From a virus, in the IMG/VR virus record IMGVR_UViG_3300009502_000203, positions 1 to 23,913 of that record: DNA of 23,913 nucleotides; one strand, 5' to 3'. The translations under genes and the position numbers were made by a program. Positions 2,773 through 21,649 of this stretch are shown piece after piece. The notes beneath the pieces are model-generated. The model saw nothing but the letters and a program-made list of their open reading frames with translations. It searched no databases and was not told where the DNA came from. Numbering within the stretch: position 1 is the first letter of the stretch; the number at the start of each line of letters is the position of its first letter.

Positions 2773-2774
2773 TT

Positions 2775-6624: not shown

Positions 6625-6630
6625 AAAACG

Positions 6631-8361
6631 ATGATATCAAATATTGACTTGATTGATCCACCTCTCAGCGAAATTGAGACAGAAAAGAACCCAGAGGATA
6701 TCCATATTAGGTTAATATATCAAAAAATTTTTTATGTTTTTAAAATTGTCATAATCTTAATCTCATTAGTTATTATTGGTTTTTTGATTTTAGTTGCAAT
6801 CGTTCCGGAGAACGGAATTATCATACAGCCGTTCGAAGGTAATCAAAAGAATCTTAGTGGAGTATTCACAGCCAATCATCTTAATTTCGAATTACTCGAC
6901 ATAAAAGATACTTATAGTAAGAAAATAGGTGACTCTGCATCTCAGTCTGATTATGGTAATGCACGTATAAGTATACCATCTATTTTAATACAAGCACACT
7001 CTATAGATTACAGCATCACCGGTTTGGGTAATGTTGGCGTTGGAGGAACATCTCTTTCCGTAGGTCAATTAGTTTTATCAATAAAGCAATTTACAGGTCA
7101 TAGTACACCGATCCTCTATGGCTGTATCGAGAGATCTAGATCGAATTTACGCATTATTGGCATTTTAAACGATCCAGGTCTCTCTGGGGGAACTAAGGCT
7201 TGGGAAATATGTAAGAATCTTTCAGAAAGCAGTGATGCTAGCGAAGAAGACATACCTTTGATGATCGAAGACCTTGCATTTCAAATAGCTACTAGCTTAA
7301 TAAATGAAGATAAATACCCTTGGTGGGATATCCTTCATTTCGTCCATTTATCGGAGACAGATTTCGGGAAAAATCCACAAACTTGGGAGGCATTCAAGAA
7401 TTTAACATTAAGCAGAAAAGCCTACATTAGATATACGGCTACTGGCAACATCAATGATCTAAACAGGGCCAGAGAATATGCAAGCATTGCAAATGAATCC
7501 GAACCCGGTTGCTCAGAAACTGCGGTTCTCTTTTCCCTCCTTGGTTCGTCCTATTTGAAGCTGCACGATTACTCAGAGGCAGAACAACTTTTCAAGAATG
7601 CTGTATATTTAAATCCTTCTGATAAAGTCTCCTGGTGTGGGATAGGCTTAGTTCTTCTCGAAAATAAAAATTTTGCAGAATCAATTCAAGCTTTTGACAA
7701 GGCAATAAGGATCGATCCGCGATATGCCGAGGCTTGGAACAACAAGGGCGTTACTCTTATGGCTCAAGGAAAGGATGATGAAGCCCTCCAAGCCTACAAC
7801 CAATCTATCAAGTTCGATCAGAAATTAGAGACGGCTTGGTTCAATAAAGGCTTAGCCCTCTATGATAAAACATATTTCAACGAATCGATTAAAGCTTATG
7901 ACCAGGCAATTAATCTAGATCCAACAGATTCAGACGCATTGACCAATAAAGGTGCTTCTTACTATAAGCTTAAGAATTATCCCCAAGCCATTCAGACTCT
8001 TAATGATGCTATTAACATAACTCCAAACAATGCATACGCATGGTACAACAAAGGTCTAGCTCTGGGGGCACAGGAAGAGTTCGATAGCGCCATCCAAGCC
8101 TTTGATCAGGCCATCAAAATAAATTCGAGCTATAAGAAGGAAGCCTGGTACCATAAAGGGGTGGTTCTCTATAACCAGGACAAGTGCGGAGAGGCCATCG
8201 AGGCTTTCGGTAAGGCCATCATGCTTGATCCCAACTATGCCAAGGAGCTTGAAAAGGACATGGCCGGCCAGGCACAAAGGATACCAATTCCCCCATGCAT
8301 GGCAGCAACTTCCACCTTCTTGAACAAAAGGGACGCGAAGAACGAGAACCTGACCTGCTAG
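6631..8361 (+). CDS. Membrane-anchored TPR protein
   Basis: N-terminal TM helix (VIILISLVIIGFLILVAIV), a non-repeat domain, then C-terminal TPR repeats. Confidence 0.92.
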   Translation: MISNIDLIDPPLSEIETEKNPEDIHIRLIYQKIFYVFKIVIILISLVIIGFLILVAIVPENGIIIQPFEGNQKNLSGVFTANHLNFELLDIKDTYSKKIGDSASQSDYGNARISIPSILIQAHSIDYSITGLGNVGVGGTSLSVGQLVLSIKQFTGHSTPILYGCIERSRSNLRIIGILNDPGLSGGTKAWEICKNLSESSDASEEDIPLMIEDLAFQIATSLINEDKYPWWDILHFVHLSETDFGKNPQTWEAFKNLTLSRKAYIRYTATGNINDLNRAREYASIANESEPGCSETAVLFSLLGSSYLKLHDYSEAEQLFKNAVYLNPSDKVSWCGIGLVLLENKNFAESIQAFDKAIRIDPRYAEAWNNKGVTLMAQGKDDEALQAYNQSIKFDQKLETAWFNKGLALYDKTYFNESIKAYDQAINLDPTDSDALTNKGASYYKLKNYPQAIQTLNDAINITPNNAYAWYNKGLALGAQEEFDSAIQAFDQAIKINSSYKKEAWYHKGVVLYNQDKCGEAIEAFGKAIMLDPNYAKELEKDMAGQAQRIPIPPCMAATSTFLNKRDAKNENLTC

Positions 8362-8516
8362 CCGGAGCGAAAACCAAGCAACGCGCGGAATTCTATAAGA
8401 AGAAGCAACCAAACGCATTTAAGACGAGTGGCTCCCAAACTGCCTTATCCAGGGCTATCTAGGCCCTCATTCTAACAGTTCCATAAAGATGCAAATACTT
8501 AAATTATTAAGATACG

Positions 8517-8745
8517 ATGACATTTACAGATAAGCCTACACAAAGAAAGAAGAGCATTAGACCGGATCTATGTAGCCGTTCTTTGGACAGCCAAGAAGGT
8601 ATTAACTGATTTTCAGGAAAAGGGACGCATCTCTCCTCAGGGAGATACGCTAAACGACTTGCTCTTGGATTGCAAGAAGGTCAAGGAGGGGATCAAGGAG
8701 CTAGAAATCCTACTAACTGAAGTAAAAGAGCAAACCGTCAATTGA
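8517..8745 (+). pseudogene. Frameshifted paralog of the 4308 regulator, with its promoter (homology from ~8434)
   Basis: ATG 8517 gives MTFTDKPTQRKKSI. After a +1 shift (ATT-A-GAC) it reads DRIYVAVLWTAKKVLTDFQEKGRISPQGDTLNDLLLDCKKVKEGIKELE, matching ERLNVTVLATAKNVLSDFQEKGGYASQGDALNDLLLDYGRLQERVKELE. Upstream CTAACAGT.CC.TAAAGATGCAAA...CTTAAAT is conserved. Confidence 0.85.
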
Positions 8746-8777
8746 ATTATATTAATTATATAATAAGTGATGACACT

Positions 8778-9416
8778 GCACTTCCAGCTATCCCGCCACA
8801 GCTGTGATCACCGAGGAGAGAGGGTGGGGTCCGGGGAAAGAAAGCTGAGGGCCTTCATGACTGATGCCATATTCTCGATCAAACACCGCTACGCAGAACG
8901 CATTTACAGCGGCCATAAGAGCGTAGAGCTGCGGTGGACGGCTCCGAAGACGCCCATAGAGCAGGCCTGGATCTACGAAACAGCGCCGGTGAAAAGGATT
9001 ACAGGCTGGTTTGAACCCGGCCTGATTCATCCACCGATGGACTGCGAGGCCCTCCTGGAGAGGTTCGGAGAGGATAAATGCCTGGGAATGCAGGTCATCG
9101 GGACCAAGGAGGAGCGACTCCAGGCGATGATCGAGGCCCTGGGAGACAAGCCTCTGCATGCAATCAGCATCAAAAGAGCCCAACGAATACGCCCTGTGGA
9201 GCTTCGCTTCAGGCCACCGCAAAGCTGGATGTACTGCAGGAAGACAGAAAAGCTCGGTTAGAAGTGCCTCCAAAGATCGCAAGCGTGGTGCTGGGCGCTG
9301 AGCAGGCCATGAAGCACGAAATTATCCCGGCCTGCCAGAAACGGCTACATCCCGCACTCCCGGCTATCCCGCCGCCGCGGCCGTGACCATCGAGGAGAGA
9401 GAGTGGGGTCCGGGGA
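8778..9416 (+). repeat. Imperfect ~60-bp direct repeats (8778-8837 and 9354-9416) flanking the ASCH gene
   Basis: GCACT.CC.GCTATCCCGCC...GTGA.CA.CGAGGAGAGAG.GTGGGGTCCGGGGA occurs in both copies. Positions 9434-9456 also match ASCH 9151-9173 (22/23). Confidence 0.85.
8857..9261 (+). CDS. ASCH (PUA-like) domain protein, 134 aa
   Basis: IFSIKHRYAERIYSGHKSVELR, WIYETAPVKRITGWF and C-terminal RPPQSWMY are ASCH signature motifs. The likely start is ATG 8857. Confidence 0.85.
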   Translation: MTDAIFSIKHRYAERIYSGHKSVELRWTAPKTPIEQAWIYETAPVKRITGWFEPGLIHPPMDCEALLERFGEDKCLGMQVIGTKEERLQAMIEALGDKPLHAISIKRAQRIRPVELRFRPPQSWMYCRKTEKLG

Positions 9417-9501
9417 GGGGGAGAGGAGAAATGCCTCTGTATGCAATCAGCATCAAGGAGCCAAGTGAATTAGCCCGGTTTGGCTTCGCATCCGGTCACC
9501 A

Positions 9502-10284
9502 TCACAAATACGCGCACACCGCCCTCACCTTCGTCTTCTGCTCGGTTCCCTTGAAAGTTATCGCCGTCATGGATGCCTGACCCGTCTTGCAGTTCAGGTA
9601 ATACGTCCCCTTGGCCGCCAGATCCAACAGATAGCCATAGAGGCTAACAGACCCCCTCAGAGAGACACCGGAGCTGATGCCGATCTTCGTCGTAGTCTCC
9701 TTATTCACCTCTGAATTGGCAGCCGTAGACAACGTTGCGAAGACATCAAGTGCTCCCGCCGCGGCCCTCGTGACTTCCAGCTCTGCAGCGTACTCTACCC
9801 TCCAGCGACCAATAGGAATCGTCAAAGATCCGCCCTTATTATACCAGGTTCCAGCCGCAGGCGACGCTTGAGAGCTATCCGATGTCACCAGGCTCTCGAC
9901 CCTCCATTTGGCTTCATCCACCGGGAATCCATAGGGCGCTTTTGCCATCGAGAAATAGGGCTCGATGATCCGGGAATTGGCCAGGCTGTAATCCGTGCCT
10001 GCATAGAGTGTAATCGTGGTGCTGGGTGCTGAGTAGGCCACGCCTGTGATGATGAAGTATGAAGTTATCCCGGCCTGCTGGAGCCTGACTCTCATTCCTT
10101 TTCCGTACTTCCAGGAGAGGTCTCCAGGCACGGTCAGAGTATAGGTCTTAACTGCAGCATCTGCGCCGGCATAAGTCCAGGACTCCTCCACCGCCGAGAT
10201 CCAGCCGCCATTATAGGCGTCCTCCAGGCGGCGGATTTTCTCCAGGAGGCTTTGCATCTGCTCAGATATCGCTTGCGAATCCAT
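9502..10284 (-). CDS. Putative tail fibre / receptor-binding protein, 260 aa
   Basis: Last gene of the structural operon. Short N-terminal coiled coil followed by beta-rich, Ala/Thr/Ser/Gly-rich domains. Confidence 0.55.
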   Translation of the reverse strand: MDSQAISEQMQSLLEKIRRLEDAYNGGWISAVEESWTYAGADAAVKTYTLTVPGDLSWKYGKGMRVRLQQAGITSYFIITGVAYSAPSTTITLYAGTDYSLANSRIIEPYFSMAKAPYGFPVDEAKWRVESLVTSDSSQASPAAGTWYNKGGSLTIPIGRWRVEYAAELEVTRAAAGALDVFATLSTAANSEVNKETTTKIGISSGVSLRGSVSLYGYLLDLAAKGTYYLNCKTGQASMTAITFKGTEQKTKVRAVCAYL

Positions 10285-11587
10285 CGTACAGGGTCAACTC
10301 CATCACATCAGAATTCAGGGCGCTCTCGAAGGCTTTGTTCAGGATCCTCATGTCGTACTGGCCGTTATAGGGAGGCGAGGAGATCGTCACCCTCACGAAA
10401 TCACCGCATTGCAGGGTGTAGTCCGGCCTGGTCCAAATCTTCAGATAACGCTCATCGCAGGTCTGGCCAATCATGGCCGAGGTGCAGCGGAAGACCTGAT
10501 CATAGCTCATGGAAATGTCGCTGGTTACGTGCTCCTTCCAGACTCCGGCAGAAGGAGAGTAGTTGCCAGTATGATAATCCCGGCCAAAGCGTGCAGGCGG
10601 CCAGAAGCTGTAGCCAAAGGTGCAATCCCGGCCCTTCATGACCACGGAATCAAAGCCATAATTAGCAGCATCAAGAGTTCCAACCTCGAAATCAACCAGA
10701 TCTGCCTCAATGTAGGCCTTGACCGGGTTATCATACCAGCCGTTATAGAGCTGCAGATCACATCTCAGCTCCTGATCCCCATCGGAGCGGTTGACAAAAT
10801 TCCACTCCAGGCCCTCATGAGACATGACACGGTTGAGAGTGGTGATCAGCCTTTCATGCACAGCGGGAACGCCGGGACTGGAGAGATTCCAGGTGGGCAT
10901 GGGCGAGCCTTTGCAAAGGTGTGCATTCTTGTAGTTCAAGACGTAGCAGGGATAGTTCTTGGGATTGCCCTCCGGATCAGCTACGCCCGTTCTGACATAC
11001 AGATAATCGGTATCTCTAAACCACTGATTAACGGCCATGCCGGCCAGAGATGCGGCCTGTGTCAGCAAAGTGGTGCCCAAATAAACGGCGGGAGTGGGCA
11101 CCGGGATTCTCTGAGGAAAGCCGGTCCCGGTGTAGTAAGGGGCGCTGTAGGTTCCTGCCGGCGCACCCATAGAGGAAGCATCCTGCCAATTTGGAGGCAT
11201 GAGGGAACCGGCCTGGAAGAGTATTCCCTGGCTGGCCACAGTATCTCCGAAGATGTTGCTTATGGCGTCATTACTCGTATAGGCCCGCACATGCGGAAAA
11301 CGATGATGCAGTATGGCCGAATGGCCCAGGCAGTGGTACTCCTGCGGCTTCTTTGACTTGAAAGACGGCCTCGAAATCTTATCAAACCAGCCGCAGAAGA
11401 CGGGCATGGTTTCACCGGCCTTGGTTACATTGATCTTGGCCCGCTCATCCACAGTCTGCCCGTCGAAGCACTGGAAAGAAAGCCTCTGGTGGCCCATATG
11501 CGGCCAATCGGCCCGGTACTCGATTGGCTTGAGGCTTAAGGTAGAGCCATCCGGATTGGTGGCCACGAAACTCAAATCAGTCGGCAT
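10262..11587 (-). CDS. Putative tail-tip hub (Tal/gp27-like) protein, 441 aa
   Basis: Position before the fibre-like gene; beta-rich N- and C-termini (LQCGDFVRVTI...YDMRIL...MELTL) resemble hub proteins; GAGGTGA RBS. Confidence 0.5.
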   Translation of the reverse strand: MPTDLSFVATNPDGSTLSLKPIEYRADWPHMGHQRLSFQCFDGQTVDERAKINVTKAGETMPVFCGWFDKISRPSFKSKKPQEYHCLGHSAILHHRFPHVRAYTSNDAISNIFGDTVASQGILFQAGSLMPPNWQDASSMGAPAGTYSAPYYTGTGFPQRIPVPTPAVYLGTTLLTQAASLAGMAVNQWFRDTDYLYVRTGVADPEGNPKNYPCYVLNYKNAHLCKGSPMPTWNLSSPGVPAVHERLITTLNRVMSHEGLEWNFVNRSDGDQELRCDLQLYNGWYDNPVKAYIEADLVDFEVGTLDAANYGFDSVVMKGRDCTFGYSFWPPARFGRDYHTGNYSPSAGVWKEHVTSDISMSYDQVFRCTSAMIGQTCDERYLKIWTRPDYTLQCGDFVRVTISSPPYNGQYDMRILNKAFESALNSDVMELTLYDGFASDI

Positions 11588-11595
11588 TTTTCACC

Positions 11596-12615
11596 TCAAG
11601 GCGCTATGGTGTAGCTGATTGTGGTCGTAGCGTCATAGCCGCCCTTTTCGGCGTGCTTTCCATCAATCACCTGCACCTTCAGGCCATTTGTCCCGCTGTC
11701 GGCCAGCGTGGGCTTCCAGCTCGTCCAGTTTCGACTCTGCCAGCCTGAGAGGTCCTTCCAATAAGAGGCTCCAGGCGGCTGATGCAAGAACTTGTAAAAC
11801 AGCTCGTTGCCATCAGCGTCCGTTGCGGTGCAGATCAGCTCGATCTCCAGGCCGGGAGGCTGGGGGCTGGCGAGCGAGGGCATGAGACTCGTAATTGTTG
11901 GCACCGCCTGGGCGGTTGCAGTGATTGTGTAGCTTATCGACGTTGATTGATCCGCAGCCCCTTTGTTGATGCCTCCCCGGATTTCTATGTAAATTGTGGA
12001 TACACCTACATCGGCCTCAGTAGTCCTCCAGCTTAAGCTGTTTCTCGATTGCCACTCAGACATATCCCGCTTAACCCCACCAGTGCCAGGACCAGTTATG
12101 AGAAATCTATACTCAAGTCCTTGATTAGGAGACGCGATCGCTGTAAAAACAATCTCACTTGTTGCCGCTTTTGGGCTCGCCTGAGATGGAGTTATTGTTA
12201 AGGTAAAAGTGCTTTTGATATGACAAGACACTTCCATCTTGCACCTGTAGCCTTTGATTATGGCATCGTAGGCCACAACGCCAAATATTTTAGTAACTGT
12301 GACACCACTAAATCCATCATCAAGAATCTGGCGCACTGCATCGGCAATCAGAGCGCAATACTCAGCGCCGCCGTCGCCAGCAGTCCCTTTTCTAGTCCTG
12401 ATATCCACGATAAAAACTTGATCTGCAGAGAGAATCTGGCCGTGCAAGTCCGAAAGTTCGCAGGAGATCTGGCTTTTATTTACATCTCCACTCAAATCTA
12501 CTACACTGGCAGAGATGGCTTTGTTCTTATAAATCTTTGAATTAACTAGCGTGCAGAGGGCCAAATTGCCGGTTAAGGCGGCAAGCAAATTATCAAGTGG
12601 TGTGTAGCCTGTCAT
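11596..12615 (-). CDS. Tail-terminator-like domain fused to two Y_Y_Y (Ig-like) domains, 339 aa
   Basis: Residues ~1-136 follow the terminator pattern (LLAALTGN.AL..LVNSKIY...IVDIR...IADAVRQIL). Two repeats follow: SP......EI.F.A.A......LEYRF...GP...W...S.WQSRN..SW..T.AD.G. Confidence 0.6.
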   Translation of the reverse strand: MTGYTPLDNLLAALTGNLALCTLVNSKIYKNKAISASVVDLSGDVNKSQISCELSDLHGQILSADQVFIVDIRTRKGTAGDGGAEYCALIADAVRQILDDGFSGVTVTKIFGVVAYDAIIKGYRCKMEVSCHIKSTFTLTITPSQASPKAATSEIVFTAIASPNQGLEYRFLITGPGTGGVKRDMSEWQSRNSLSWRTTEADVGVSTIYIEIRGGINKGAADQSTSISYTITATAQAVPTITSLMPSLASPQPPGLEIELICTATDADGNELFYKFLHQPPGASYWKDLSGWQSRNWTSWKPTLADSGTNGLKVQVIDGKHAEKGGYDATTTISYTIAP

Positions 12616-12622
12616 CGTTTCC

Positions 12623-12943
12623 TCAGATCATTGATTGCCCTAAGTATGCCTTCCTCATCTGTTCCGTTCCCATGCTTGGGTCTTTGCCAAGGCCAATTAC
12701 CGGCCAGGAGAAGCCGCCACGTGTGATTAGGTCGTCCTTTTGAATAGGGCTTGAGGTCAGGATATAGGCAATCTGTTGCAACTGCCTGCCTTCGTCGCCC
12801 TGAAATGACTTGACCTCATCGTACCACAAAACAGTGATTGTAGAATCTGAGTAAACCGGATCAACATTTGCATCTACGCCGGTTTTGTGCCGCCAGATAA
12901 CATATTCACCCATTGAATCAAGGTATGCATCCAATAAGCCCAT
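12623..12943 (-). CDS. Putative head-closure (stopper, SPP1 gp16-like) protein, 106 aa
   Basis: Size, position and the pattern V.WR.KTG.D....PVY...I...W...YILT..PIQKDDLI..GG.SW.V. Confidence 0.65.
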   Translation of the reverse strand: MGLLDAYLDSMGEYVIWRHKTGVDANVDPVYSDSTITVLWYDEVKSFQGDEGRQLQQIAYILTSSPIQKDDLITRGGFSWPVIGLGKDPSMGTEQMRKAYLGQSMI

Positions 12944-12997
12944 TGAATATCTCTCCCTAAAAATTATAGACGAGCATCGGGAAGTCCGAGAAGGCGC

Positions 12998-13270
12998 TCA
13001 TACCTTTCCCACTATCCAACCGATTGCAGCGAAGGCTGAACCCACGAGCCCCCATTTCAAGACGCCGTTCCGGCCCAGCCAGGAGAATGTGCATCGGGAG
13101 GCTTTGAAAACGAAAAGATATTTGTCGCCTTCATCCAGTCGGGCAAATATCTTATCATGCTCATTCTTGTTGCTCGTTGTCAGGCAGTTGACAGCCTGCA
13201 CGACCTGTCCGAGGATGATATCTCGGCTACATTCAGGAGGGATCTTGATGGCCGGGTCTTGGTCGTCCAT
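12998..13270 (-). CDS. Small membrane protein with C-terminal TM helix (holin/egress-like?), 90 aa
   Basis: Helical N-terminus plus the TM segment GVLKWGLVGSAFAAIGWIVGK. Confidence 0.6.
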   Translation of the reverse strand: MDDQDPAIKIPPECSRDIILGQVVQAVNCLTTSNKNEHDKIFARLDEGDKYLFVFKASRCTFSWLGRNGVLKWGLVGSAFAAIGWIVGKV

Positions 13271-13282
13271 GCGCCCTCATGC

Positions 13283-13477
13283 TCATGCATTGTGTGTGGC
13301 GGTGATCTTGCGCAGGCCTGCCATCAGCAGAGAACAAACTATGAGAATCGTCTGAGGCTCTATGCCTGTCTGCTGGCCCACGAAGGCAGCCGCGCCAGGA
13401 TCGATGTAGCCTACCAGACCGATCAGAAAAAGGGCAGCAGCGGCGATGTAGGTCCTATATCCTTCCAGATTCATCAT
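13283..13477 (-). CDS. Small two-TM membrane protein (holin-like), 64 aa
   Basis: GYRTYIAAAALFLIGLVGY...ILIVCSLLMAGLRK; GGAGGTGG RBS. Confidence 0.65.
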   Translation of the reverse strand: MMNLEGYRTYIAAAALFLIGLVGYIDPGAAAFVGQQTGIEPQTILIVCSLLMAGLRKITATHNA

Positions 13478-13684
13478 CTATTCCACCTCCCACACAAGCC
13501 ATCCTTTGGCCACGTAGAATTCTATCTGCTCATCTGAGAAGTCGAGGGCATTGTACCATGGGCCCTTTTCACCGGTGCCCTCCAGGATAATTAGTTCCTC
13601 GTTCTCGTTCTTGCTCAGGCTCTTTGGGCCGAAATCGCCCCTATTGATTCCGCCTTTCTTTTGACAATAGAATTTTTGTGACAT
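13478..13684 (-). CDS. Hypothetical virion-module protein, 68 aa
   Basis: Adjacent and co-oriented with its neighbours; GAGGTGA RBS. Confidence 0.6.
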   Translation of the reverse strand: MSQKFYCQKKGGINRGDFGPKSLSKNENEELIILEGTGEKGPWYNALDFSDEQIEFYVAKGWLVWEVE

Positions 13685-13692
13685 GTATCAAT

Positions 13693-14187
13693 TCACCTCA
13701 TTCTCGCTCCCCGGTACTTTCTCAAAAGTTTCCTGGCCACTGAGCTAAGCAAGCACTGACTGCCCGCACCTACTACAAAAGTCTCTGACAGTTTGCCTGC
13801 GACTGTAAAGGACTGCACGCCCTCATCTTGTAACCTCTTGCGGCCTCCTATGCCGACACGGTAGATCTCTAATGCCTCTTCGATGCACGCAGATTTCACA
13901 TCCTGGGGGACTATTGCAAGCCCGCTGGTGCTGTTGTAGTCCAGAGTCACGCCATCGATAATTCTGGGGAATGCCCGTTTCTGATCCAGTACACCCGCGG
14001 TTATTCCTGGATCATATTTTTTGCCCCGATAATTCCAAGAATCAATAGCCTGAGTGGCTCTGTTTAAGTAAGAGGTCATCTGTTGATCTGCCAGTGCCTG
14101 GAATTCTGCGGCCCGGTCATCTCCTACTAAGTAGGTTGCAGTCTCGGCCAAAGTCACATAGGCGTCTAATACGGGTAGTTCGACCAT
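13693..14187 (-). CDS. Head-tail connector/adaptor ('DnaT-like' adaptor family), 164 aa
   Basis: AYVTLAET..YL, L.RATQAIDS..YRG.K, Q.RAFPR, VPQDVK.AC.EEAL and VARKLLRKY are typical adaptor motifs. Confidence 0.75.
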   Translation of the reverse strand: MVELPVLDAYVTLAETATYLVGDDRAAEFQALADQQMTSYLNRATQAIDSWNYRGKKYDPGITAGVLDQKRAFPRIIDGVTLDYNSTSGLAIVPQDVKSACIEEALEIYRVGIGGRKRLQDEGVQSFTVAGKLSETFVVGAGSQCLLSSVARKLLRKYRGARMR

Positions 14188-14205
14188 GATGCACCTAAAA
14201 AAAGA

Positions 14206-14388
14206 TTATTTGCCGAGGCCGGTCTTGCTCGGCTTATCTTCCTTCTCGCCCTTGTCTATCTCTTTGGGATGATCTTCTTTTGCTGGCCTGATCTCATATT
14301 TCTCAGGATATTTCTGTAGGTGCTTGAGAGTGCCCTCATCTGAGATCTCCCAGACAGTCTTTTCGATCTTGTTAAAGACTCTGACTAT
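14206..14388 (-). CDS. Small charged protein, ~60 aa, possibly from an ATA start
   Basis: Reads (I)VRVFNKIEKTVWEISDEGTLKHLQKYPEKYEIRP. AAGGTGT plus a 4-nt spacer precedes ATA 14388, which overlaps the upstream TAG. Confidence 0.55.
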   Translation of the reverse strand: MVRVFNKIEKTVWEISDEGTLKHLQKYPEKYEIRPAKEDHPKEIDKGEKEDKPSKTGLGK

Positions 14389-14822
14389 CTTAACACCTTC
14401 AGAATGACCATAGTGGCCGTGGTTACGTTTGTAGTCGAGAACTTGAGATACTTGGTAGTGTTCAGGAACCGGGCTGACTCCAACGGGCCGCACAGGACCG
14501 AGCGGTTGACTATAAGAGGGATTGCCAGGTTGCCTATCTCGGCCCGGAATGCAGGCGGGTTATTTCCGGCCAAGATGTTCAGTTTTGGACTTGTTCCTAC
14601 AGTTGTAGCGTTGATAATCACGAAATACGTGTAGGCGCTATCGTAGGCGATATACTTTGTATTCGTGCTCGTGGGTGCAGCACTCCAATAGGCAGCCGTG
14701 ACATAACTATTCTCACCCGTTAGTGTCCCGGCAGCCGTGAGCGCGGTATCTGTAGCCTGTACCTCTGCCATACCGGCTAGAAGTAAAGCACCGGCTAGCA
14801 AAAAATATAGAATCCTATTCAT
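14385..14822 (-). CDS. Post-MCP capsid-decoration-type protein carrying an N-terminal signal peptide, 145 aa
   Basis: The C-terminal LAG..PPA.RA..G.L...GPLESARF motif resembles genes that follow P22-like MCP genes in actinobacterial prophages (from recollection). N-terminus MNRILYFLLAGALLLAGMAEVQA|TD. Confidence 0.7.
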   Translation of the reverse strand: MNRILYFLLAGALLLAGMAEVQATDTALTAAGTLTGENSYVTAAYWSAAPTSTNTKYIAYDSAYTYFVIINATTVGTSPKLNILAGNNPPAFRAEIGNLAIPLIVNRSVLCGPLESARFLNTTKYLKFSTTNVTTATMVILKVLR

Positions 14823-14835
14823 CTTATCCACCTCT

Positions 14836-15705
14836 TTAGCTGAAGTTGCAGGTCATAACGCCCAAGCATGCCGGCTTCACTACTTTTCTGCCGAACACGT
14901 ACTCCCCATCTACCTTTCTGGCATACTGCTTTTCCATAGTCATGATACGAGTATCTTCTACCTGAGATGCGAAGGTTATGGCCTGCTTGGTGCCGAACAG
15001 GATCTTGTTCAATGTTCCGTTGGTGTTAGGCACGTTGTTGGATACCAGTAGCTCAAATCCTCCGATGCGGCCAATCGAGCCGTTTAAGATTGCCGGAGTT
15101 GCCACAGTTGGCGCGCTGGAACCCTGATCGTGCAGGTCGTTTACAATCAGTGCCTCCATCTCAGGAGGTATGATCATCCACTTGGGCATGGCTGCCGGCA
15201 CTTTGGACTTTTTGAGCTTGGTTCCGCAGTCCGTGATTAACTTGAATATGTTGGAAGGATCGGCCTTCGTTACATTAGGAGTCTTGGGTGCTGCGTCCGT
15301 GCCCACCAGATTAGAGGCACTGGCATCGACATAAGAAGAAGCCACAGCCAAATCTACTGCATCAGCCACAGCATAAGCTGCCTCTATGTTGACCTCATCC
15401 ATTAGGTTAATTAGGGTCTGCTCTTCATCTTTCTTGGGGATCTTGAAGTTGTAACCCTTATGAAAATCGATCACAAGATGGGTATCTGTATCCGCAATGA
15501 TTTCAGGGTCGGGCATGTCGACATTATCAGTTACATCGAATACAGTAACTCCGCCGATGCCGGTTAGGCGCACACTCTTAGCGTACTTTACTGATCCCTC
15601 ATAATTGCGATTAATCACGCCTTCCTGGGCAAAAACTAATACAGATTGTAGCTGGTGTTGAACTTCCAGCGCGACTCTTTCTTCTTTAAACGCTTCATAA
15701 GCCAA
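14836..15705 (-). CDS. Major capsid protein (HK97 fold, P22 coat-like family), 289 aa
   Basis: VINRNYEG...SVRL..IG.VTV..., LVID..K..NFKI, AAYAVADAVD, WMIIPP, G.IGRIGGFELLVSNN and YVFGRKVVKP. TTG start behind GAGGTGG. Confidence 0.9.
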   Translation of the reverse strand: MAYEAFKEERVALEVQHQLQSVLVFAQEGVINRNYEGSVKYAKSVRLTGIGGVTVFDVTDNVDMPDPEIIADTDTHLVIDFHKGYNFKIPKKDEEQTLINLMDEVNIEAAYAVADAVDLAVASSYVDASASNLVGTDAAPKTPNVTKADPSNIFKLITDCGTKLKKSKVPAAMPKWMIIPPEMEALIVNDLHDQGSSAPTVATPAILNGSIGRIGGFELLVSNNVPNTNGTLNKILFGTKQAITFASQVEDTRIMTMEKQYARKVDGEYVFGRKVVKPACLGVMTCNFS

Positions 15706-15714
15706 AGTACCACC

Positions 15715-16323
15715 TCATTCTCTTACTCGTCCTTCTGCTTCTGCTCGCTTAATATCGGCTAGCACTTCCGCAGTTATGGTTCCAGTCTTGCGAAGTTCCC
15801 GGACCTTTGCCGCAGTCCAAATTGTCTTTCCCTGCTGGTCTCCATTCTGCAATCCCTGGTTCCCAGCTCCGTGTGCATTTCCTCCACCTCCTTGTGCAGC
15901 CCCGTTACCCTGCTGGCCTTGCTGTTGCTGTCCTTCCTGGGGCAGCATTTTGGCCAGAGCCAGGGCTTCAAGGCTGGCGTTGATCTCAGTAGGGGTCGTT
16001 CCGGCAATGTTCAGGAATTGCAGCAGTACCGGGATCTGACCCGATGGAACATTGCGCTGCATGAGGGCCTTCATCTTGGCCAGTTCCAGGTCAGCACCCT
16101 TTAGCGTCTCGCCCTTCGGCTCCTCTTTCGGCTTCTTGCCGGCTGCCAGGAGAGCCTTTGCTTCTGCTAGCGGCATTCCGAGCGCAGTTTCGAGGTCTGC
16201 TAAACTCATGTTATCCTCTTTTTGCTGATTCCCTTCTGGACCAGCTCCTTGGCCCTGGTCTACCTGGCCCTCTTCTTGACCCTGGTCTACCTGGCCGTCT
16301 CCTGCGTTTTCTTCATTTTCCAT
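15715..16323 (-). CDS. Capsid scaffolding protein, 202 aa
   Basis: Directly before the MCP. Acidic Q/G low-complexity segments (GQVDQGQ twice), helical core and C-terminal IKRAEAEGRV. Confidence 0.75.
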   Translation of the reverse strand: MENEENAGDGQVDQGQEEGQVDQGQGAGPEGNQQKEDNMSLADLETALGMPLAEAKALLAAGKKPKEEPKGETLKGADLELAKMKALMQRNVPSGQIPVLLQFLNIAGTTPTEINASLEALALAKMLPQEGQQQQGQQGNGAAQGGGGNAHGAGNQGLQNGDQQGKTIWTAAKVRELRKTGTITAEVLADIKRAEAEGRVRE

Positions 16324-16406
16324 TGGATTTTCTCCGTTCCTAACTTGTCGTATTCACTGTCTTTACTAACGAAAAAAAATAGAATTTATGATTTTAAAAA
16401 TGAGGC

Positions 16407-16718
16407 TTATAAGATCTGTATGTTGTGGATGCAACCGGGGTGAAATAGGCCCTCCTCTCTTGCTTCTTCAATCGAGGGAAAGCCCGGCACATCCCCAGTC
16501 AAGCTCACCACCTGGCCGGCCCATTTCAGGCATACTGAGCAGGTGTTTCCTGAGTGTCCTTCTGTGATCCTGCACAATGTCATCCTTGCCTCTACCATGC
16601 CGTTTAGGTTGCCTTGCCGGAAGCTCTGGATAGTGGCCTCTGGCCCCAGGAGAGAGGCATAGCGGCCCATGTCCCACTTGTTGCCGGTCTTATCTACGAA
16701 TCCTGTTAGCTCGTCCAT
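16407..16718 (-). CDS. Minor capsid protein (Phage_min_cap2/MuF-like), C-terminal part, 103 aa
   Basis: GFVDKTGNKWDMGRYA, C..C..WAGQVVSL and GLFHPGCIH. Own GGAGG RBS 5 nt before ATG. Confidence 0.8.
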   Translation of the reverse strand: MDELTGFVDKTGNKWDMGRYASLLGPEATIQSFRQGNLNGMVEARMTLCRITEGHSGNTCSVCLKWAGQVVSLTGDVPGFPSIEEAREEGLFHPGCIHNIQIL

Positions 16719-17146
16719 GTGGGCCTCCCTGGTGCGGCCTTTTGCATAGCTGCTTTTAGGTGTGCAAGATTGTGCTGCTTGATCATATCATCAATCTGCC
16801 TGCCTACTACATCCACCACACCGGCCAGCCTGGAAAATGTACTCTGAGCCAGAACATCCATCGTTTGCAGGTGCAGCGGGCTTAATGATGTTGGGTCTAA
16901 ATTGCCCCGGGCTGCTCTCAGGCCGGCCAAATAACAGTCAGGTATGGCCTCCTCGACCCACTGCCGGGAGCCCGCCAGCAGTTCTGCTCTTATCTGCTTG
17001 ATTCGTGCTACTCTCAAATCATCTGGTCCGATGATAGACGATTGCAAAAGAATGCAATTGCATTCTCTCAGTAGCTCTCGTTCTGCATCCTCGAATAGCT
17101 TAATGAGACGTTGGGCCTGGGGGCTGGTGGGGGGAAACTCAGGCAT
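16706..17146 (-). CDS. Minor capsid protein, N-terminal part, 146 aa
   Basis: Follows the portal; helical (RLIKLF..AEREL, W...AIP..YLAG, LH.Q....LA). Overlaps the C-terminal ORF by 13 nt in another frame. Confidence 0.7.
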   Translation of the reverse strand: MPEFPPTSPQAQRLIKLFEDAERELLRECNCILLQSSIIGPDDLRVARIKQIRAELLAGSRQWVEEAIPDCYLAGLRAARGNLDPTSLSPLHLQTMDVLAQSTFSRLAGVVDVVGRQIDDMIKQHNLAHLKAAMQKAAPGRPTWTS

Positions 17147-18545
17147 TCTGCTCCACAGGCTGGACGGGCAGGACTGGTTGCAGCTTGATAATTGGCTCTG
17201 CCGGTGCTATCCTCTGTTGTGCACCCCGGATTCGTTCAAGCTCCTGGTTAAAGGCGTCAGATCCTTCTTTAAATCCCTGTAGCTCCAACTTGCGCTCTAA
17301 TGAGAGTGCCCCAAGCGAATCCCAGATCTGGGCTGCTGTAGCAGTTTCGATCTGATCTACCGGCAGGCCGTCTTTCAGGATGACGCTGATATTACTAATC
17401 TCGATTACAGGAGGATGCAACTGAGACCAGAGGTTCAGGACTTTTGGTATTGCCTTTTCCATGGCCCTGGCGTGCTTGTCCACCTGAGACATAGTTGGAA
17501 TGAGGCGGAAGCGCAAGGCTGTTCCGGATTCGGCTGTACCTGCATCTTTGCCAGCCAGTAGAACTCGGCTGAGTTGGAGCATCTGAAGTAATTGGTCCAT
17601 CTTTTGATCTATGGCAGCCTCAACATGGCCGAGCTGGGCGTCCCAGACCATGAGAGAAGGCGGTACGTCCCCCGGCATTGTAAATATGGGCTCCCCTGGT
17701 CGATAGACCCACTCTCCTAATCCGTGATCGAATACCTGGGCACTGTCCGGTATTACAGGAGTGGGTGCTGTGAAATTGCTCTGTACCGCGTCACGCTCAG
17801 AAAATGAGATTTCCAAAGACTCGATCAGAGAGAGGACCGATGGCTTGTAGTCCGAGCGCCCATAATATCGCTCGCTTGATAGCGCATTCTGAACATGGAC
17901 AATTAAGGTATCATCCACATCTGTTTTCTGGACCCCATTTTCTTCTATGACAATATCTGCGAAGGCAGGGAAGCTGTTGAGCACCAGAGGGCCACTTAGC
18001 TTTCCTCCCCTCAACTCAAATAATAGGTGCTGAATCTGACCCTTGCTGTGGATCGTGAACTTGATATATTCCAGCTCTTTGCCTTCGTCGTTCTTCTGCT
18101 TGAACTTGGCAAAGATCACAAAATGAGTTATGTGCTGAAGATATACCGGCGAGACCACCAGATACATGTTTTCGGGATTGATGATATAAATCCCCTGGTT
18201 AGTGACTTCATAAGCCGCATGACCGTATCTACTGGCATCGATTACTACTTGCGAGTCTGGCCGATCCGGGATAACTTTCATAGGAGTCTTGATTTCGATA
18301 GGCTTACCAAAGCAGAGGTTCAAATATGTGGTTGTGGCCAATTGTGCCCAGTCCAGGATGATCTTTGGCTTATGCTGCCTCTCTGCCGTGTCGGCCAGGT
18401 AAGCTGCATACCGAGGGAAAATGCTATCGTGCAGGCCGTTATAGATCTGCCTCATGAGCACATGCTCAGCTATGCGGTTGGCCTCATCTTCGTCTTTAGG
18501 CGGCCACTGTCCCCCATCTATCAGAAAGTCCAGGTTATTTAGCAT
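17139..18545 (-). CDS. Portal protein (SPP1 gp6-like), 468 aa
   Basis: Position after TerL, size, and motifs HVQNALSSERYYGRSDY and AGTAESGTALRFRL. Confidence 0.88.
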   Translation of the reverse strand: MLNNLDFLIDGGQWPPKDEDEANRIAEHVLMRQIYNGLHDSIFPRYAAYLADTAERQHKPKIILDWAQLATTTYLNLCFGKPIEIKTPMKVIPDRPDSQVVIDASRYGHAAYEVTNQGIYIINPENMYLVVSPVYLQHITHFVIFAKFKQKNDEGKELEYIKFTIHSKGQIQHLLFELRGGKLSGPLVLNSFPAFADIVIEENGVQKTDVDDTLIVHVQNALSSERYYGRSDYKPSVLSLIESLEISFSERDAVQSNFTAPTPVIPDSAQVFDHGLGEWVYRPGEPIFTMPGDVPPSLMVWDAQLGHVEAAIDQKMDQLLQMLQLSRVLLAGKDAGTAESGTALRFRLIPTMSQVDKHARAMEKAIPKVLNLWSQLHPPVIEISNISVILKDGLPVDQIETATAAQIWDSLGALSLERKLELQGFKEGSDAFNQELERIRGAQQRIAPAEPIIKLQPVLPVQPVEQNA

Positions 18546-18759
18546 CTGGTATCTTCCCTGCCTCTTCGATTATCTCTTGGTCATTCTTTTTTATGTCACC
18601 GTAACACTTTTGGCAGCTTAGGCGATCTGTTAAAATCGTGCTGCCGAGCTTGTTTGGCGTCACACCGGGCAGATAAGGTACTACCGGCGTGAACTCAACA
18701 ATTTTAACTGGCACAGGTAACTCTTTTCCTATATCACCCCCACAAAATAAGCACTTCAA
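18535..18759 (-). CDS. Small zinc-finger protein, 74 aa
   Basis: CLFC...CQKC; TTG start behind AGGAGG, immediately after the nuclease stop. Confidence 0.65.
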   Translation of the reverse strand: MKCLFCGGDIGKELPVPVKIVEFTPVVPYLPGVTPNKLGSTILTDRLSCQKCYGDIKKNDQEIIEEAGKIPDAK

Positions 18760-19431
18760 TTATCTTTTCCTCCTATCGTTTTTGTCTACTGTTCTCCTGT
18801 GCCTGCGAGAATACCTGTATTCTCCGTACCAGGCAGATAGAGCCAGGCACAAAACCAGGTCGTCATGTTCAGATTCCCGCCATGCTGAATAAGAATCATG
18901 GCCACTGGCGTTTATCTTGAGCTTGAGGTTGGTTAATTCTCCTTTCAGTGGCTCGGCTAGTGGCAATGCCTCCGCTACCTTAATTCGCTGTGACTGGTAG
19001 ATAGCCAGCAGGGCAAAGACCAGATCCCTTTTTGGTACATGGTAGCCCCCAATTACACGAGAGGGCGTATGGCCTGCTGTGATGGTAATTTCTATGACTT
19101 CCTTGTTTAGCGCAATCAGGCCGCTAGTGTCAGGTTTCATGAGTTTGGGATTGAACATATCACAAACCGGAGCCCCTACCCCAGTTTTATCAATGATTAG
19201 CAGGGGCGGTTCGCTGGCTTGCAGTTCCGGCTTTTTCAATAGTGCCTCGACCTTATCCACAATCAGGGGGTAAGGCATCCCTCGCACTCGTTCTAAGTAA
19301 GGTAGTTCATACTCGAATCTGTGCCTCGACTCCACAAATTTCTGATGCAAAATCCCCAAAGCTGTGTAGTCGTTGGCCTGGCCCAAATCCAGGCCGACTA
19401 AATAGCGATGCTCTTCTTTAGGCGATTGCAA
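18760..19431 (-). CDS. terL: Terminase large subunit, nuclease (RNase H-like) domain as a separate gene
   Basis: LVGLDLGQANDYTA, IIDKTGVG.PV.D and EHDDLVL.LAL catalytic motifs. Likely TTG 19431 behind GGAGG (track start 19464). Confidence 0.88.
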   Translation of the reverse strand: MQSPKEEHRYLVGLDLGQANDYTALGILHQKFVESRHRFEYELPYLERVRGMPYPLIVDKVEALLKKPELQASEPPLLIIDKTGVGAPVCDMFNPKLMKPDTSGLIALNKEVIEITITAGHTPSRVIGGYHVPKRDLVFALLAIYQSQRIKVAEALPLAEPLKGELTNLKLKINASGHDSYSAWRESEHDDLVLCLALSAWYGEYRYSRRHRRTVDKNDRRKR

Positions 19432-20227
19432 GAACTTGTACCTCCGAAGTAAACGCTTGTGCAACTATATCGTAACTGAAGAGCTGGCTATCCGTATCTG
19501 TAAACTGGTTGAAATATTCCTGTTTCCAGAACAGCTCGGGCATGCCATCGTCAAGCTCCTGCTGCAAGAACTCCCTGGAGATCCTGGGGCATTGGTGGGC
19601 ACTAATCTCGTACTTCTCCCAGCCTTTAGCTGTGGTCCAGGTGTCATGGAAATGGCCCCTCTTTCCAAAGGGCGTGGACATCATTATATACCGGCCACCT
19701 GAGACCGCCAACATGGGCGAGACTGAGCGTTTTAGGAGGTCATCCACCCAGGCCGCCTCGTCCTCCAGGAGGAGAGTTACGGCAGATTTACCGCGGGAGG
19801 TCTTAGCGGACCCTGGCCGAGCAATGAATCTGTTTCCATTGGCGAATTTGACGGCAAGCTTGGTGTCCGTATCCAGGTACTCGCTGGTCAGCTCCACTGC
19901 CTGGCGGAACTCGTCAAACTTCATCATTAGCTCGCCGGACTGGTCTTGAGAGGGAGCGATGGCCATTCCAAAAGACGGGCGCCTGTAAATGGACTCATGC
20001 AGGCCCAGGGCGGCGCAGATGGTGCTTTTCCCGCTTTGTCGGGAGCAGTTGAGGATAATGCGCTTTGCTCTGGACTGCAAAAGGTTAGCCTGCCAGGGGT
20101 CCGGTTTGATTCCCAGAACCTCCTTAATCCAGATGGCAGGATCGAGAGCATAAAGCAGGTCATCGCTATTTTTCCATTTTATCCTGTGTACCTGCTTGCC
20201 GCTCTTTCTCCTGCGCTTGAACGTCAT
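19418..20227 (-). CDS. terL: Terminase large subunit, ATPase domain as a separate gene, 269 aa
   Basis: Q motif PDPWQ, Walker A RQSGKST, Walker B LLLEDEA and coupling motif MSTPFG. Confidence 0.92.
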   Translation of the reverse strand: MTFKRRRKSGKQVHRIKWKNSDDLLYALDPAIWIKEVLGIKPDPWQANLLQSRAKRIILNCSRQSGKSTICAALGLHESIYRRPSFGMAIAPSQDQSGELMMKFDEFRQAVELTSEYLDTDTKLAVKFANGNRFIARPGSAKTSRGKSAVTLLLEDEAAWVDDLLKRSVSPMLAVSGGRYIMMSTPFGKRGHFHDTWTTAKGWEKYEISAHQCPRISREFLQQELDDGMPELFWKQEYFNQFTDTDSQLFSYDIVAQAFTSEVQVLAIA

Positions 20228-20775
20228 CCTCTGAGGTCCTTCAGAGCCTCAATGATCTTCTTTTGCACCTCTGGGTGGTCTTCAACTGCTTTCAGGATCG
20301 CTACTCTGGCATCCTCCCAGTCAGACATAGCCTGAGCAATAATTCCTTCTGCATCGTCCCCTGAAAGCTCCATCTCCAGTTTTGCTGCTTGAAAGAGTAT
20401 GTTCATCCCAGTTGGCCAGTAAACCGAGGCCGACCCCAGGGTTAAGGTGTGCTCGGACCCATCCGAGACCAGGAATTTATCACCTATATTCACTTCAAGG
20501 AGCTGCTTAGCTCTCTTCAGTCCCAGGTGCAGCACATCCAGAGTCTTTACCACTTCTTCGACTGCCTGGCCTCTGGCCTCTTCATGCTTCTGGGCCCTGA
20601 TATCTTTGGCATCCTTCACCAGTCCTTTTAATCCCCAGACCGCCACCTTGTAACGGTTGATTGTCGAGTAGAGGTTAGGGTTCCCTAGTTCCCTAGCTAT
20701 CGCCCTGGGACTTTTCTTGTCAGCAAATCCTTTCTCGATCAGGTCGATAAAAGGAGCCAGGGATTCGAATGCCAT
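20224..20775 (-). CDS. terS: Putative terminase small subunit (N-terminal HTH), 183 aa
   Basis: Directly upstream of TerL with ATGA coupling; HTH-like SPRAIARELGNPNLYSTINRY and a helical oligomerisation region. Confidence 0.6.
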   Translation of the reverse strand: MAFESLAPFIDLIEKGFADKKSPRAIARELGNPNLYSTINRYKVAVWGLKGLVKDAKDIRAQKHEEARGQAVEEVVKTLDVLHLGLKRAKQLLEVNIGDKFLVSDGSEHTLTLGSASVYWPTGMNILFQAAKLEMELSGDDAEGIIAQAMSDWEDARVAILKAVEDHPEVQKKIIEALKDLRG

Positions 20776-20793
20776 AGATATGTCCTTAGGTAG

Positions 20794-21078
20794 TGATGCA
20801 AAGAAATTCGTGATGCAGGACTGTAGTGATGCAAACTGATGCAAAGCAATTCGTGTGGCTGTGACACAATTTAGTATTCTGATTCACTGGTGCAAAATGA
20901 TGCAAGGTTAAGGCTTGCCCGTTTTAGAGGCTTCCCTTAAAATGTGCTGCTCAAGATGGATCAGGAAGTTGATGAGCTTGCGGATTGCTTTTACTCGCCA
21001 TGCTGTCGTAGCTGGCACCTTTGCACTCGTCTTGCAATCCGTTTGCATGCTTGCATCACTCTGCATCAATTTGCATCA
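20794..21078. repeat. Cluster of TGATGCA motifs: five direct and three inverted
   Basis: TGATGCA at 20794, 20811, 20827, 20837 and 20898; TGCATCA at 21052, 21062 and 21072 (10-bp spacing). Confidence 0.9.
20908..21066 (-). CDS. Possible 52-aa small ORF (MQSDASMQTDCK...AWRVKAIRKLINFLIHLEQHILREA...)
   Basis: Open frame with an amphipathic C-terminal helix, but no clear RBS, and it overlaps the motif array. Confidence 0.3.
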   Translation of the reverse strand: MQSDASMQTDCKTSAKVPATTAWRVKAIRKLINFLIHLEQHILREASKTGKP

Positions 21079-21127
21079 TAGCTCGACATTTACATCAGCC
21101 GGAACGGACTTTTCATGAAGAGATGTC

Positions 21128-21391
21128 TTATCCCTTCACATGTTTCAGCAAGCCCCAGATCATATCAAGAAGTGTACGAGCCGCTCCGTAGTTTGTTGCC
21201 TTCTCCAGGCAAGCAGTGATTTCCTCGGCGGTCACATTATCGTCATCTGTGACATTGTCCAGTTCTGTTGAACCCACAGCCACGGCATGAAGGCCAACCT
21301 TGAATGCACCCCAAGCAGCAGGGTTGGTCTTCTTCAATACGATGATTCCGTTATTAACCAGCAATGCGCCGGCATTTTCTATTGGTCCCAT
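21128..21391 (-). CDS. Hypothetical protein, 87 aa
   Basis: Co-oriented with the late operon; AAGGT RBS; protein-like composition. Confidence 0.65.
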   Translation of the reverse strand: MGPIENAGALLVNNGIIVLKKTNPAAWGAFKVGLHAVAVGSTELDNVTDDDNVTAEEITACLEKATNYGAARTLLDMIWGLLKHVKG

Positions 21392-21405
21392 GTTTCAAAC
21401 CTTCT

Positions 21406-21424
21406 CCCAGGGTTATACCCTGGG
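21406..21424. promoter_or_regulatory. 8-bp palindromic site/hairpin just upstream of the 87-aa gene RBS
   Basis: CCCAGGGT-TAT-ACCCTGGG. Confidence 0.55.
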
Positions 21425-21649
21425 CAATTCTGGGCTGAAGTCCGGAAAAAGGATAATGGCAAGTTATTATTAGAGAAAACCAGGCTTCAGCTATCCAGTG
21501 AGTTTTAAAAGCAAGACCGCCCAGAGGTAAGACGGAGGCCCTGAATAGATCTTTTCTAGCGCACAACCCCAATGCTTTACGGGTAGGAAAATATGTTTAT
21601 AAAATTGTGCTGAATAGAATTGGCACGATAATCGCTATGAAGAGCCACA

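Follow-up and report, generated by a model that had tools for sequence, protein, structure and literature searches.

The stretch analyzed here (hereafter, the window) is 23,913 nt of viral DNA, IMG/VR record IMGVR_UViG_3300009502_000203; it corresponds to G000:C59:19-23931, i.e., the left end of a 57.9-kb contig in a 3.13-Mb assembly that is 99.6% complete. It carries a single co-directional row of genes on the minus strand, running from 20844 down to 9502, which forms a particle-building block: the hallmarks of Caudoviricetes (an HK97-fold major capsid protein (MCP), a portal, and a large terminase) are followed by a neck and two distal genes, and neither a tail tube nor a tape measure was found. 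We propose, with about even confidence for and against, that the window belongs to an autonomous temperate Caudoviricetes lineage of Methanothrix whose tail is reduced to a minimal stub. A preliminary description of this DNA had offered four alternatives, namely a satellite borrowing the tails of a helper, a short-tailed virion, a domesticated cluster resembling a gene transfer agent (GTA), and a cleanly deleted defective provirus; among these, the short-tailed virion is the simplest account and fits best. The lineage-wide gene order and the purifying selection, together with a search in which no tube or tape measure was found, argue for a tube-less design rather than a private deletion, and the integrase, D5-type primase-helicase, and ParA carried by relatives are as expected of an autonomous temperate element.

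Neck, distal genes, and the search for long-tail genes

Seven open reading frames (ORFs) follow the adaptor, g13 to g19 (68, 64, 90, 106, 339, 441, and 260 aa), and none of them matched a Pfam or PHROG family. The AlphaFold2 model of g17 (11596..12615, minus strand), built from a 17-row alignment (pLDDT 85), comprises a terminator-fold domain (residues 1-135) and two Ig/PKD/FN3-like domains (residues 136-234 and 235-339). When compared with solved structures by VIA-align, residues 1-135 superposed on terminators with Z scores of 10-12.6, a root-mean-square deviation of ~3 Å, and 110-131 residues aligned. The best match was the RcGTA virion chain 6tba_4A (Z 12.6, 120 residues aligned), the others being the phage Chi neck (11.5), the R2 pyocin collar (11.3), the Mu terminator (11.2), T5 p142 (11.1), lambda gpU (10.9), and also neck chains of SaPI1/80alpha, P74-26, and HFTV1; tube proteins were absent from the top 50 structural matches. 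In the predicted model, the N-terminal domain of g17 is confirmed by its fold as a tail terminator, in agreement with the terminator named in the preliminary description. Foldseek matches of the whole g17 model in PDB and BFVD were dominated by Ig-like domains, and PDB profile searches with the g17 N-terminal domain, g16, g19, and g18 returned nothing meaningful. The homologues of g17 keep the N-terminal domain and vary in the number of C-terminal repeats. The Ig-like repeats (window 11596-12210, minus strand) are also 25-37% identical to long repeat arrays in G000 contigs C13, C45, C49, C65, and C80, presumably cell-surface proteins, and this sequence likeness suggests an exchange of adhesion domains between virus and host.

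Upstream of g17, the putative head-closure protein (stopper) g16 (106 aa; 12623..12943, minus strand) was assigned by position and by homology to the post-adaptor gene of long-tailed kin, and it has no Pfam, PHROG, or PDB match. Homologues of g16 (50-52% identity) lie directly after the adaptor in the siphovirus-type contigs L058-L060, which places g16 at the head-closure position of a siphovirus-type neck and backs the stopper proposed earlier. It is also weakly similar (E about 1e-3) to vir515_00025 of vir515 (Caudoviricetes sp., BK063672, Methanosarcinales, from a bioreactor), which, as L058-L060, is long-tailed and siphovirus-type; hhalign comparison of the g16 and g17 N-domain profiles with vir515 neck proteins and with HSTV-1 proteins gave nothing. 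The small proteins g13, g14, and g15 (12998..13684, minus strand), the latter two with hydrophobic segments, lie between the adaptor and g16; g15 precedes g16 in all relatives (39-45% identity), and g13 and g14 are found in the closest relatives only.

The gene after g17 begins beyond a junction of 8 nt (11588..11595, minus strand) that overlaps the ribosome-binding site. The preliminary description had noted that the stop codon of the terminator sits inside a GAGGTGA ribosome-binding site, and direct reading gave the same (TGA-GGTGAAAA-ATG); its remark that the junction bears no deletion scar agrees with the recurrence of the same order in divergent Methanothrix lineages. This gene, g18 (441 aa; 10262..11587, minus strand), is assigned as a distal-tail protein, in the baseplate or hub position, by homology to P0048. 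The g18 family is narrow (21 proteins at ≥49% identity), and an exhaustive profile search found 51 remote members. One of these, P0048 (750 aa), was aligned by hhalign with a probability of 99.4 (E 1e-21) and by blastp with 24% identity over 414 aa, and its gene stands, in the archaeal siphovirus-type contig L048, four genes downstream of a tape measure of the vir515 type; that tape-measure ORF is at least 1,009 aa long and 30% identical over 564 aa to that of vir515. As its homologue P0048 lies downstream of the L048 tape measure, g18 belongs to a distal-tail protein family, indirectly supporting the hub-like gene seen earlier. Pfam and PHROG scans of 27 remote homologues found no tail family, the g18 profile found no match in PDB, and tblastn with g18 found none in 50,697 phage records. 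VIA-align with a poor model of g18 (residues 1-97) gave Z scores of 5-6.4, in which tubes, hubs, and knobs were mixed with unrelated split-barrel proteins, i.e., at noise level.

The last gene of the module, g19 (260 aa; 9502..10284, minus strand), encodes a putative fibre or receptor-binding protein. In the ESM Atlas it neighbors viral proteins (score 0.96), C1q and collagen being weak leads, and its N-terminal part has a heptad-like stretch; in some relatives, g19 is replaced or absent. The earlier designation as fibre-like is consistent with the last position in the module and with the viral neighbors, the family identity being a lead only.

No ORF longer than 441 aa lies between the adaptor and g19, no chaperone pair was found in the module, and no window ORF matched a tube family. 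The preliminary description had suggested that the rest of the genome be searched for tube or tape-measure genes or a helper provirus; this search was run and none was found. The host genome of the window (its own genome, G000) lacks a PF10145 tape measure, homologues of the vir515 tail proteins including the major tail protein, a second capsid, and any terminase besides that of the window, and vir515- or L048-type tape measures were found neither in this genome nor in 105 genomes of the family. The earlier statement that tube and tape measure are missing agrees with these searches, which found neither in the window, the contig, or the 99.6%-complete genome. Homologues of tape measures or tubes were not found in two long relatives either. 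One of these, G001 (43.8 kb), has a ParA pair, TPR proteins, and a HEAT protein besides a D5-type primase-helicase and a short integrase-like protein, but nothing tape-measure-like; the other, the provirus G002 (37.7 kb), has a full integrase, and the longest of its unexplained ORFs (705 aa) does not resemble a tape measure. The largest unexplained ORFs of three long relatives encode a HEAT protein, a primase, a cEGF/PPC protein, and this 705-aa protein. The possibility that G001 is circular, raised by MCP pieces at both ends, was rejected: there is no exact terminal repeat, and IMG/VR calls the contig linear.

Recurrence, variants, and long-tailed kin

Relatives were collected from IMG/VR searches with g18 and the MCP, from one ENA contig, and from a scan of species-representative genomes, which together gave more than 20 related loci; all named genome matches are Methanothrix or Methanotrichaceae metagenome-assembled genomes (MAGs). 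The order adaptor, g15, g16, g17, g18, g19 is found in L005-L009, L011/L016, L006/L020, L031, and L047, and the tube-less gene order occurs in more than 10 IMG/VR and MAG contigs, including lineages with only 43% MCP identity. Of the 105 species genomes surveyed in the family, 8 carry the N-terminal domain of g17, and a genome holds at most two copies of the element. Pairwise ratios of nonsynonymous to synonymous substitution rates (dN/dS) for g16-g19 are 0.05-0.17 (g16, 0.05-0.14; g18, 0.10-0.17; g19, 0.12-0.14), the same range as for the portal, MCP, and adaptor, so that the question posed in the preliminary description, whether the tube-less layout recurs under purifying selection, is answered positively and lineage-wide. 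Identity is mosaic along the elements, g18 being 90% identical to that of L005 where the MCP is 43% identical, and decayed relics of related elements are present in L040, L046, and the own genome (C47:22226-23118). The last of these lies amid host genes and retains the final 45 aa of g18 (96%) and a frame-broken g19 (~72-81%). As judged from these sequence comparisons, recurrence, selection, mosaicism, and relics would together be the behavior of an active temperate virus family, not of one broken provirus.

Two variants of the module were distinguished by the length of g17. In genomes with a short g17 (315-454 aa; G000, G067, G070, and G082), g18 follows g17 (variant A). In variant B, g17 is 771-776 aa long with six Ig repeats (genomes G054, G062, and G072; contigs L013, L018, and L019; for example, at L013:9375-11690 and L018:6354-8669), and neither g18 nor g19 was found in the genome or contig. 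The pair g18 and g19 goes strictly with a short g17 and is missing wherever g17 is long, and the long form is itself under purifying selection (dN/dS 0.13). In some relatives, 7-8 additional genes (~4 kb; phrog_4368, phrog_12121, and phrog_27227) form an optional block between the MCP or adaptor and g15, placed either before or after the adaptor (L011:12045-15901; L018:1847-5679; L031:2676-7920; L047:4118-7496). One protein family of this block weakly matches the fibre-position protein of the P2-like Paenibacillus phage phiERICV; the block was not found in the window, L005, or L007, which keep the same neck and tip genes. The stretch is complete in lake and freshwater metagenomes, whereas runs from soil, permafrost, and peat contain parts of it. 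In three metatranscriptome studies of peat and wetland (runs X15-X17; window 8500-21500), contigs match pieces of almost all structural genes from TerS to g19 with 90-99% identity; this is a weak hint of expression, DNA carry-over being possible. Some parts of the stretch were not covered by contigs of the RNA runs, a gap that carries no meaning.

The long-tailed kin share with the window the portal, the minor head protein, a g10-like protein, and the adaptor, all homologous (28-52%) and in the same order, and the adaptors of L058-L060 are 42-52% identical to g12. After the head-closure gene, however, vir515 and L058-L060 encode a neck protein, a PF12691 terminator, a major tail protein, chaperones, and a tape measure, whereas the window encodes the Ig-fused terminator, g18, and g19. 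In L058-L060, the g16 homologue is followed by a 112-aa homologue of vir515_00026, a PF12691 terminator (homologue of vir515_00029), a 333-aa protein, two small proteins, and then an Ala/Gly-rich ORF of at least 1,025 aa, which matches the tape measure of vir515 with 28% identity across 781 aa (E 4e-50). The tape measure has 1,622 aa in vir515 and at least 1,009-1,025 aa in the contig-truncated ORFs of L048 and L059. No sequence similarity was detectable between g17 and the PF12691 terminators of these kin. Because the two groups are alike up to the head-closure gene and different after it, the lineage arose by module replacement, not deletion. The preliminary description had held that close relatives with tube and tape measure at this junction would mean a simple deletion; such genes are found only in distant kin (~50% identity in adaptor and g16), and the unlike terminator speaks against a simple deletion.

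Packaging and head genes and the extent of the element

Head and packaging families were assigned by PHROG and Pfam scans of the window ORFs, and all genes of this group are on the minus strand. The putative TerS, g01 (20224..20844), was assigned by its position upstream of TerL; it has 35-99% identity in relatives and weak helix-turn-helix matches only. TerL is encoded by two overlapping ORFs, the ATPase half g02 (269 aa; 19418..20227; phrog_7579, E 1.8e-41; PF03237, E 4.5e-7), which is the sole Terminase_6N match in the own genome, and the nuclease half g03 (234 aa; 18760..19464; phrog_27743, E 1.9e-34; weak PF17289). This split (18760-20227) is retained in relatives, and each half matches a PHROG profile of about its own length (239 positions for phrog_7579 and 233 for phrog_27743); TerL is a single gene in the long-tailed kin vir515 and L058. 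The Cys-rich g04 (74 aa; 18535..18759) lies between TerL and portal in relatives as well (56-96% identity) and has no family match. It is followed by the SPP1-type portal g05 (17139..18545; PF05133, E 3e-12; phrog_533, E 2e-14) and by the minor head protein of SPP1 gp7/Mu F type, which is split into g06 and g07 (16407..17146; g07 matching phrog_4611 and PF06152); both align in order to one gene, vir515_00050. The two parts are ORFs of 146 and 103 aa in different frames, the same split is seen in the L005/L007/L031 lineage, and one 260-aa ORF is found in the G001/L011 lineage.

The putative scaffold g08 (15715..16323) is E/Q/G-rich, kept in relatives, and assigned by its position before the MCP, with no family match. 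The MCP itself, g09 (14836..15705), has the HK97 fold (phrog_267, E 1.5e-44; PF25209) and is 34% identical to that of the Methanosarcinales virus vir515. The head-associated g10 (14385..14831; phrog_24894, E 1.6e-8), whose homologues stand after the MCP in vir515 and before the adaptor in L059, is probably a head decoration or accessory protein; its N-terminus is hydrophobic and signal-peptide-like. The head-tail adaptor g12 is of the Ad1 type (13693..14187; phrog_477, E 1.4e-11; PF20557, E 2e-11) and is 52% identical to the adaptor of the long-tailed contig L059. The TerL, portal, minor capsid protein, MCP, and adaptor of the preliminary description are, therefore, backed by family matches; its TerS and scaffold are present and conserved as genes, and their identity is positional, a family match being lacking.

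The element extends past the particle-building block, on the left as far as an ArdC/SWIM block (window 1349-3518) and on the right, beyond the window, as far as a ParA pair at about 30.8 kb of the contig, so that it spans at least ~29 kb. The ParA pair and two DUF1670 regulators recur in relatives, as does the ArdC/SWIM block at the opposite side, and because these are shared, the element reaches well beyond the particle-building block and off the contig end. The ParA gene and a 274-aa gene lie just right of the window (G000:C59:29212-30775) and are 97% and 86% identical to their G001 counterparts. Downstream of the structural genes, the block at 1349-3518 (minus strand) encodes ArdC (ArdcN plus zincin peptidase), SWIM, and DUF5710 proteins, and low-GC TPR genes lie at 5275-8361 on the opposite (plus) strand; the same arrangement is found in the 122-kb ENA contig (L031:11802-18840). 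From this sequence conservation, the ArdC/SWIM/DUF5710 block and the opposite-strand TPR genes appear to be conserved cargo of the element family. Neither a tRNA gene nor an attachment site turned up that would define where the element ends. A short integrase-like ORF (193 aa) lies 21 kb right of the window (G000:C59:45165-45746), and homologues of the D5-type primase-helicase and replication-module genes are found on two other contigs (G000:C23:21024-23630 and G000:C75:785-4645). The earlier observation that integrase and replicase are missing is correct for the window; relatives carry an integrase and a D5-type primase-helicase.

Assembly model, rival explanations, and known systems

The assembly steps described here are modeled on the roles of homologous parts in siphoviruses. 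The portal dodecamer would carry the adaptor ring and then a ring of g16; a g17 hexamer would cap g16, as the terminator caps the stopper in siphoviruses, and would dock directly on g18 in place of a tube, the N-terminal β-barrel of g18 possibly mimicking a tube ring. Trimers of g19 and the Ig-like arms of g17 may then bind the host surface. In variant B, six long Ig arms on the terminator ring would replace g18 and g19. As to the origin, everything downstream of the head-closure gene may have been replaced in a siphovirus-type ancestor. We further consider, as a doubtful proposition that we would sooner deny than affirm, that this is an undescribed design, i.e., a full-size head whose "tail" is the neck only (adaptor, stopper, and terminator ring) with six long Ig-repeat arms (variant B) or with a single distal protein and fibre (variant A), serving either free-standing delivery into the sheathed filaments of Methanothrix or the first archaeal head-tailed satellite, whose own terminator would capture the tube of a helper.

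Several points weigh against the stub-tailed virus. The particle is predicted from gene content, and the AlphaFold2 model of g18 (17-row alignment) has a pLDDT of 43 and is unusable. No known podovirus nozzle, knob, or ejection protein was recognized, and in variant B no predicted part would seal or lengthen the channel under the terminator ring, a feature difficult to square with known modes of ejection. A domain of the tube/terminator class joined to Ig-like domains is the usual build of major tail proteins, and g17 might polymerize. Finally, the own element runs off the contig end, and the CheckV completeness of relatives is 53-63%, so that genes could lie beyond the contigs.

These last points feed two of the rival explanations. 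If tail genes are unrecognized or unassembled, a tube or tape measure of novel fold could lie elsewhere, perhaps past the end of the contig or within the optional module of 7-8 genes, whose proteins have no assigned function and include the family that matches the Paenibacillus phage fibre-position protein; we judge this improbable, as neither the size nor the composition of the largest unexplained ORFs in the three long relatives is that of a tape measure and the optional module is missing from the window, L005, and L007 though their neck and tip genes are the same. Alternatively, g17 could itself be the tail tube, its copies stacking into a tail, short or variable, that does without a tape measure, with Ig domains as in lambda gpV or T5 pb6 and with g18 as the tip. 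The build of gpV, SPP1 gp17.1*, and pb6 is just such a tube-class domain with Ig repeats, the module holds no other protein of this fold class, and the repeat number of g17 varies as in tube decorations; all high-scoring matches of residues 1-135, however, are terminators, with no tube in the top 50, the chaperone pair is not present, and we know of no tailed virus that builds a tube without a tape measure, which makes this reading very improbable. Still fainter is the chance of a domesticated GTA-like cluster or a defective provirus with a clean deletion, which would agree with a window devoid of integrase and replicase and with the decayed relics of related elements. The layout is common to divergent lineages, which argues against a private deletion in this genome, and every tail-side gene is under purifying selection, so that the cleanly deleted provirus of the preliminary description is refuted; its GTA-like domestication is unlikely given the integrase, primase-helicase, and ParA of relatives, the patchy distribution (8 of 105 genomes, up to two copies per genome), the mosaic modules and cargo, and the relics.

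The satellite of the preliminary description requires closer weighing. Such a capsid-forming satellite would make its own head, neck, and terminator (plus the tip in variant A) and capture the tubes and tape measures of a helper, its terminator capping helper tubes so that they are joined only to satellite heads. A head and neck set that is complete without tube or tape measure is what this reading expects, as is variant B, which has no distal protein at all; long-tailed kin with compatible-looking adaptor and g16 (52% identity) exist in metagenomes, g18 homologues work in tape-measure-containing tails, and the bacterial cf-PICIs (phage-inducible chromosomal islands that form capsids) are a precedent for tail theft (preprint 10.1101/2025.02.11.637232). 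Against it, a PF10145 tape measure was found in 0 of the 8 carrier genomes, the 7 of 105 family genomes with PF10145 forming a disjoint set (these are too few genomes for statistical meaning, and the satellite reading simply gains nothing from them), and an L048-type tape measure was found in 0 of 105. The own genome has no second terminase or capsid, and the elements, which carry genes of their own for replication, partition, and integration, measure at least 38-44 kb, compared with 10-18 kb for cf-PICIs. In known systems, moreover, the helper itself assembles the terminator onto the tail, and we know of no case of a satellite-encoded terminator. The satellite gains no support from these tests, and we regard it as unlikely; the stub-tailed virus keeps its place as the best-fitting of the four.

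Methanothrix ranks among the principal methanogens living on acetate in wetlands, peat, and digesters, and to our knowledge no virus has been isolated for it. If the stub-tailed reading is right, the lineage shows how a long-tailed virus type turned tube-less by swapping all that lies behind the head-closure gene, with a terminator-fold protein kept as the last ring, and it offers a test case of how short tails evolve from long ones and of what the minimal DNA-delivery device of a tailed virus may be. If instead the satellite reading is true, no head-tailed virus satellite would have been reported in Archaea before this one; in the literature we found, archaeal satellites (pSSVx, pSSVi, and SRCE candidates) are all associated with spindle-shaped viruses (10.1101/2025.02.15.638363).

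Among known systems, the fold of g17 residues 1-135 is common to the tail terminators lambda gpU, T5 p142, Mu, 6tba_4A, and the R2 pyocin collar; the named terminators, however, are ~130-175 aa long, whereas g17 carries 2-6 Ig-like domains across its homologues. In lambda and HK97, the genes for tube, chaperone, tape measure, and Dit follow the terminator, and in lambda and T5 the terminator caps the tube, whereas the gene after g17 is the distal-tail-family g18. The RcGTA-type agents, which lack integrase and replication genes and occupy a fixed locus passed on vertically, differ in that our relatives carry an integrase and a D5-type primase-helicase, with patchy occurrence (8/105) and mosaic modules. 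With the cf-PICIs of Proteobacteria the lineage shares TerL, portal, capsid, adaptor, the positionally assigned TerS and connector, the lack of tube and tape measure, and an integrated state with its own replication genes. The cf-PICIs are 10-18 kb in size, carry a protease and an HNH gene but no tail genes, and need helper tails, the specificity of the tail theft residing in adaptor and connector (10.1101/2025.02.11.637232); by contrast, the Methanothrix lineage is at least 38-44 kb (relatives, 37.7-43.8 kb) and has a terminator and distal tail proteins, and Pfam and PHROG scans found no protease or HNH gene among the window genes. Shortaselviridae (HSTV-1) is the only archaeal short-tailed family in the 2021 taxonomy, within an order that includes long-tailed viruses (PMC8651126). 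HSTV-1 resembles the lineage as a head-tailed archaeal virus without a gene of tape-measure size and as a short-tailed form inside a long-tailed clade, and differs in its MCP family, haloarchaeal host, and replication genes (MCM and PCNA); no hhalign alignment of HSTV-1 gp15-gp29 with the profiles of g16, the g17 N-domain, g18, or g19 exceeded a probability of 20%, in what is a single-sequence comparison of low sensitivity. If the favored reading holds, the lineage represents a short-tailed caudovirus whose siphovirus-type neck terminates in a ring of the terminator fold, its closest sequenced relatives, vir515 and L058-L060, being long-tailed.

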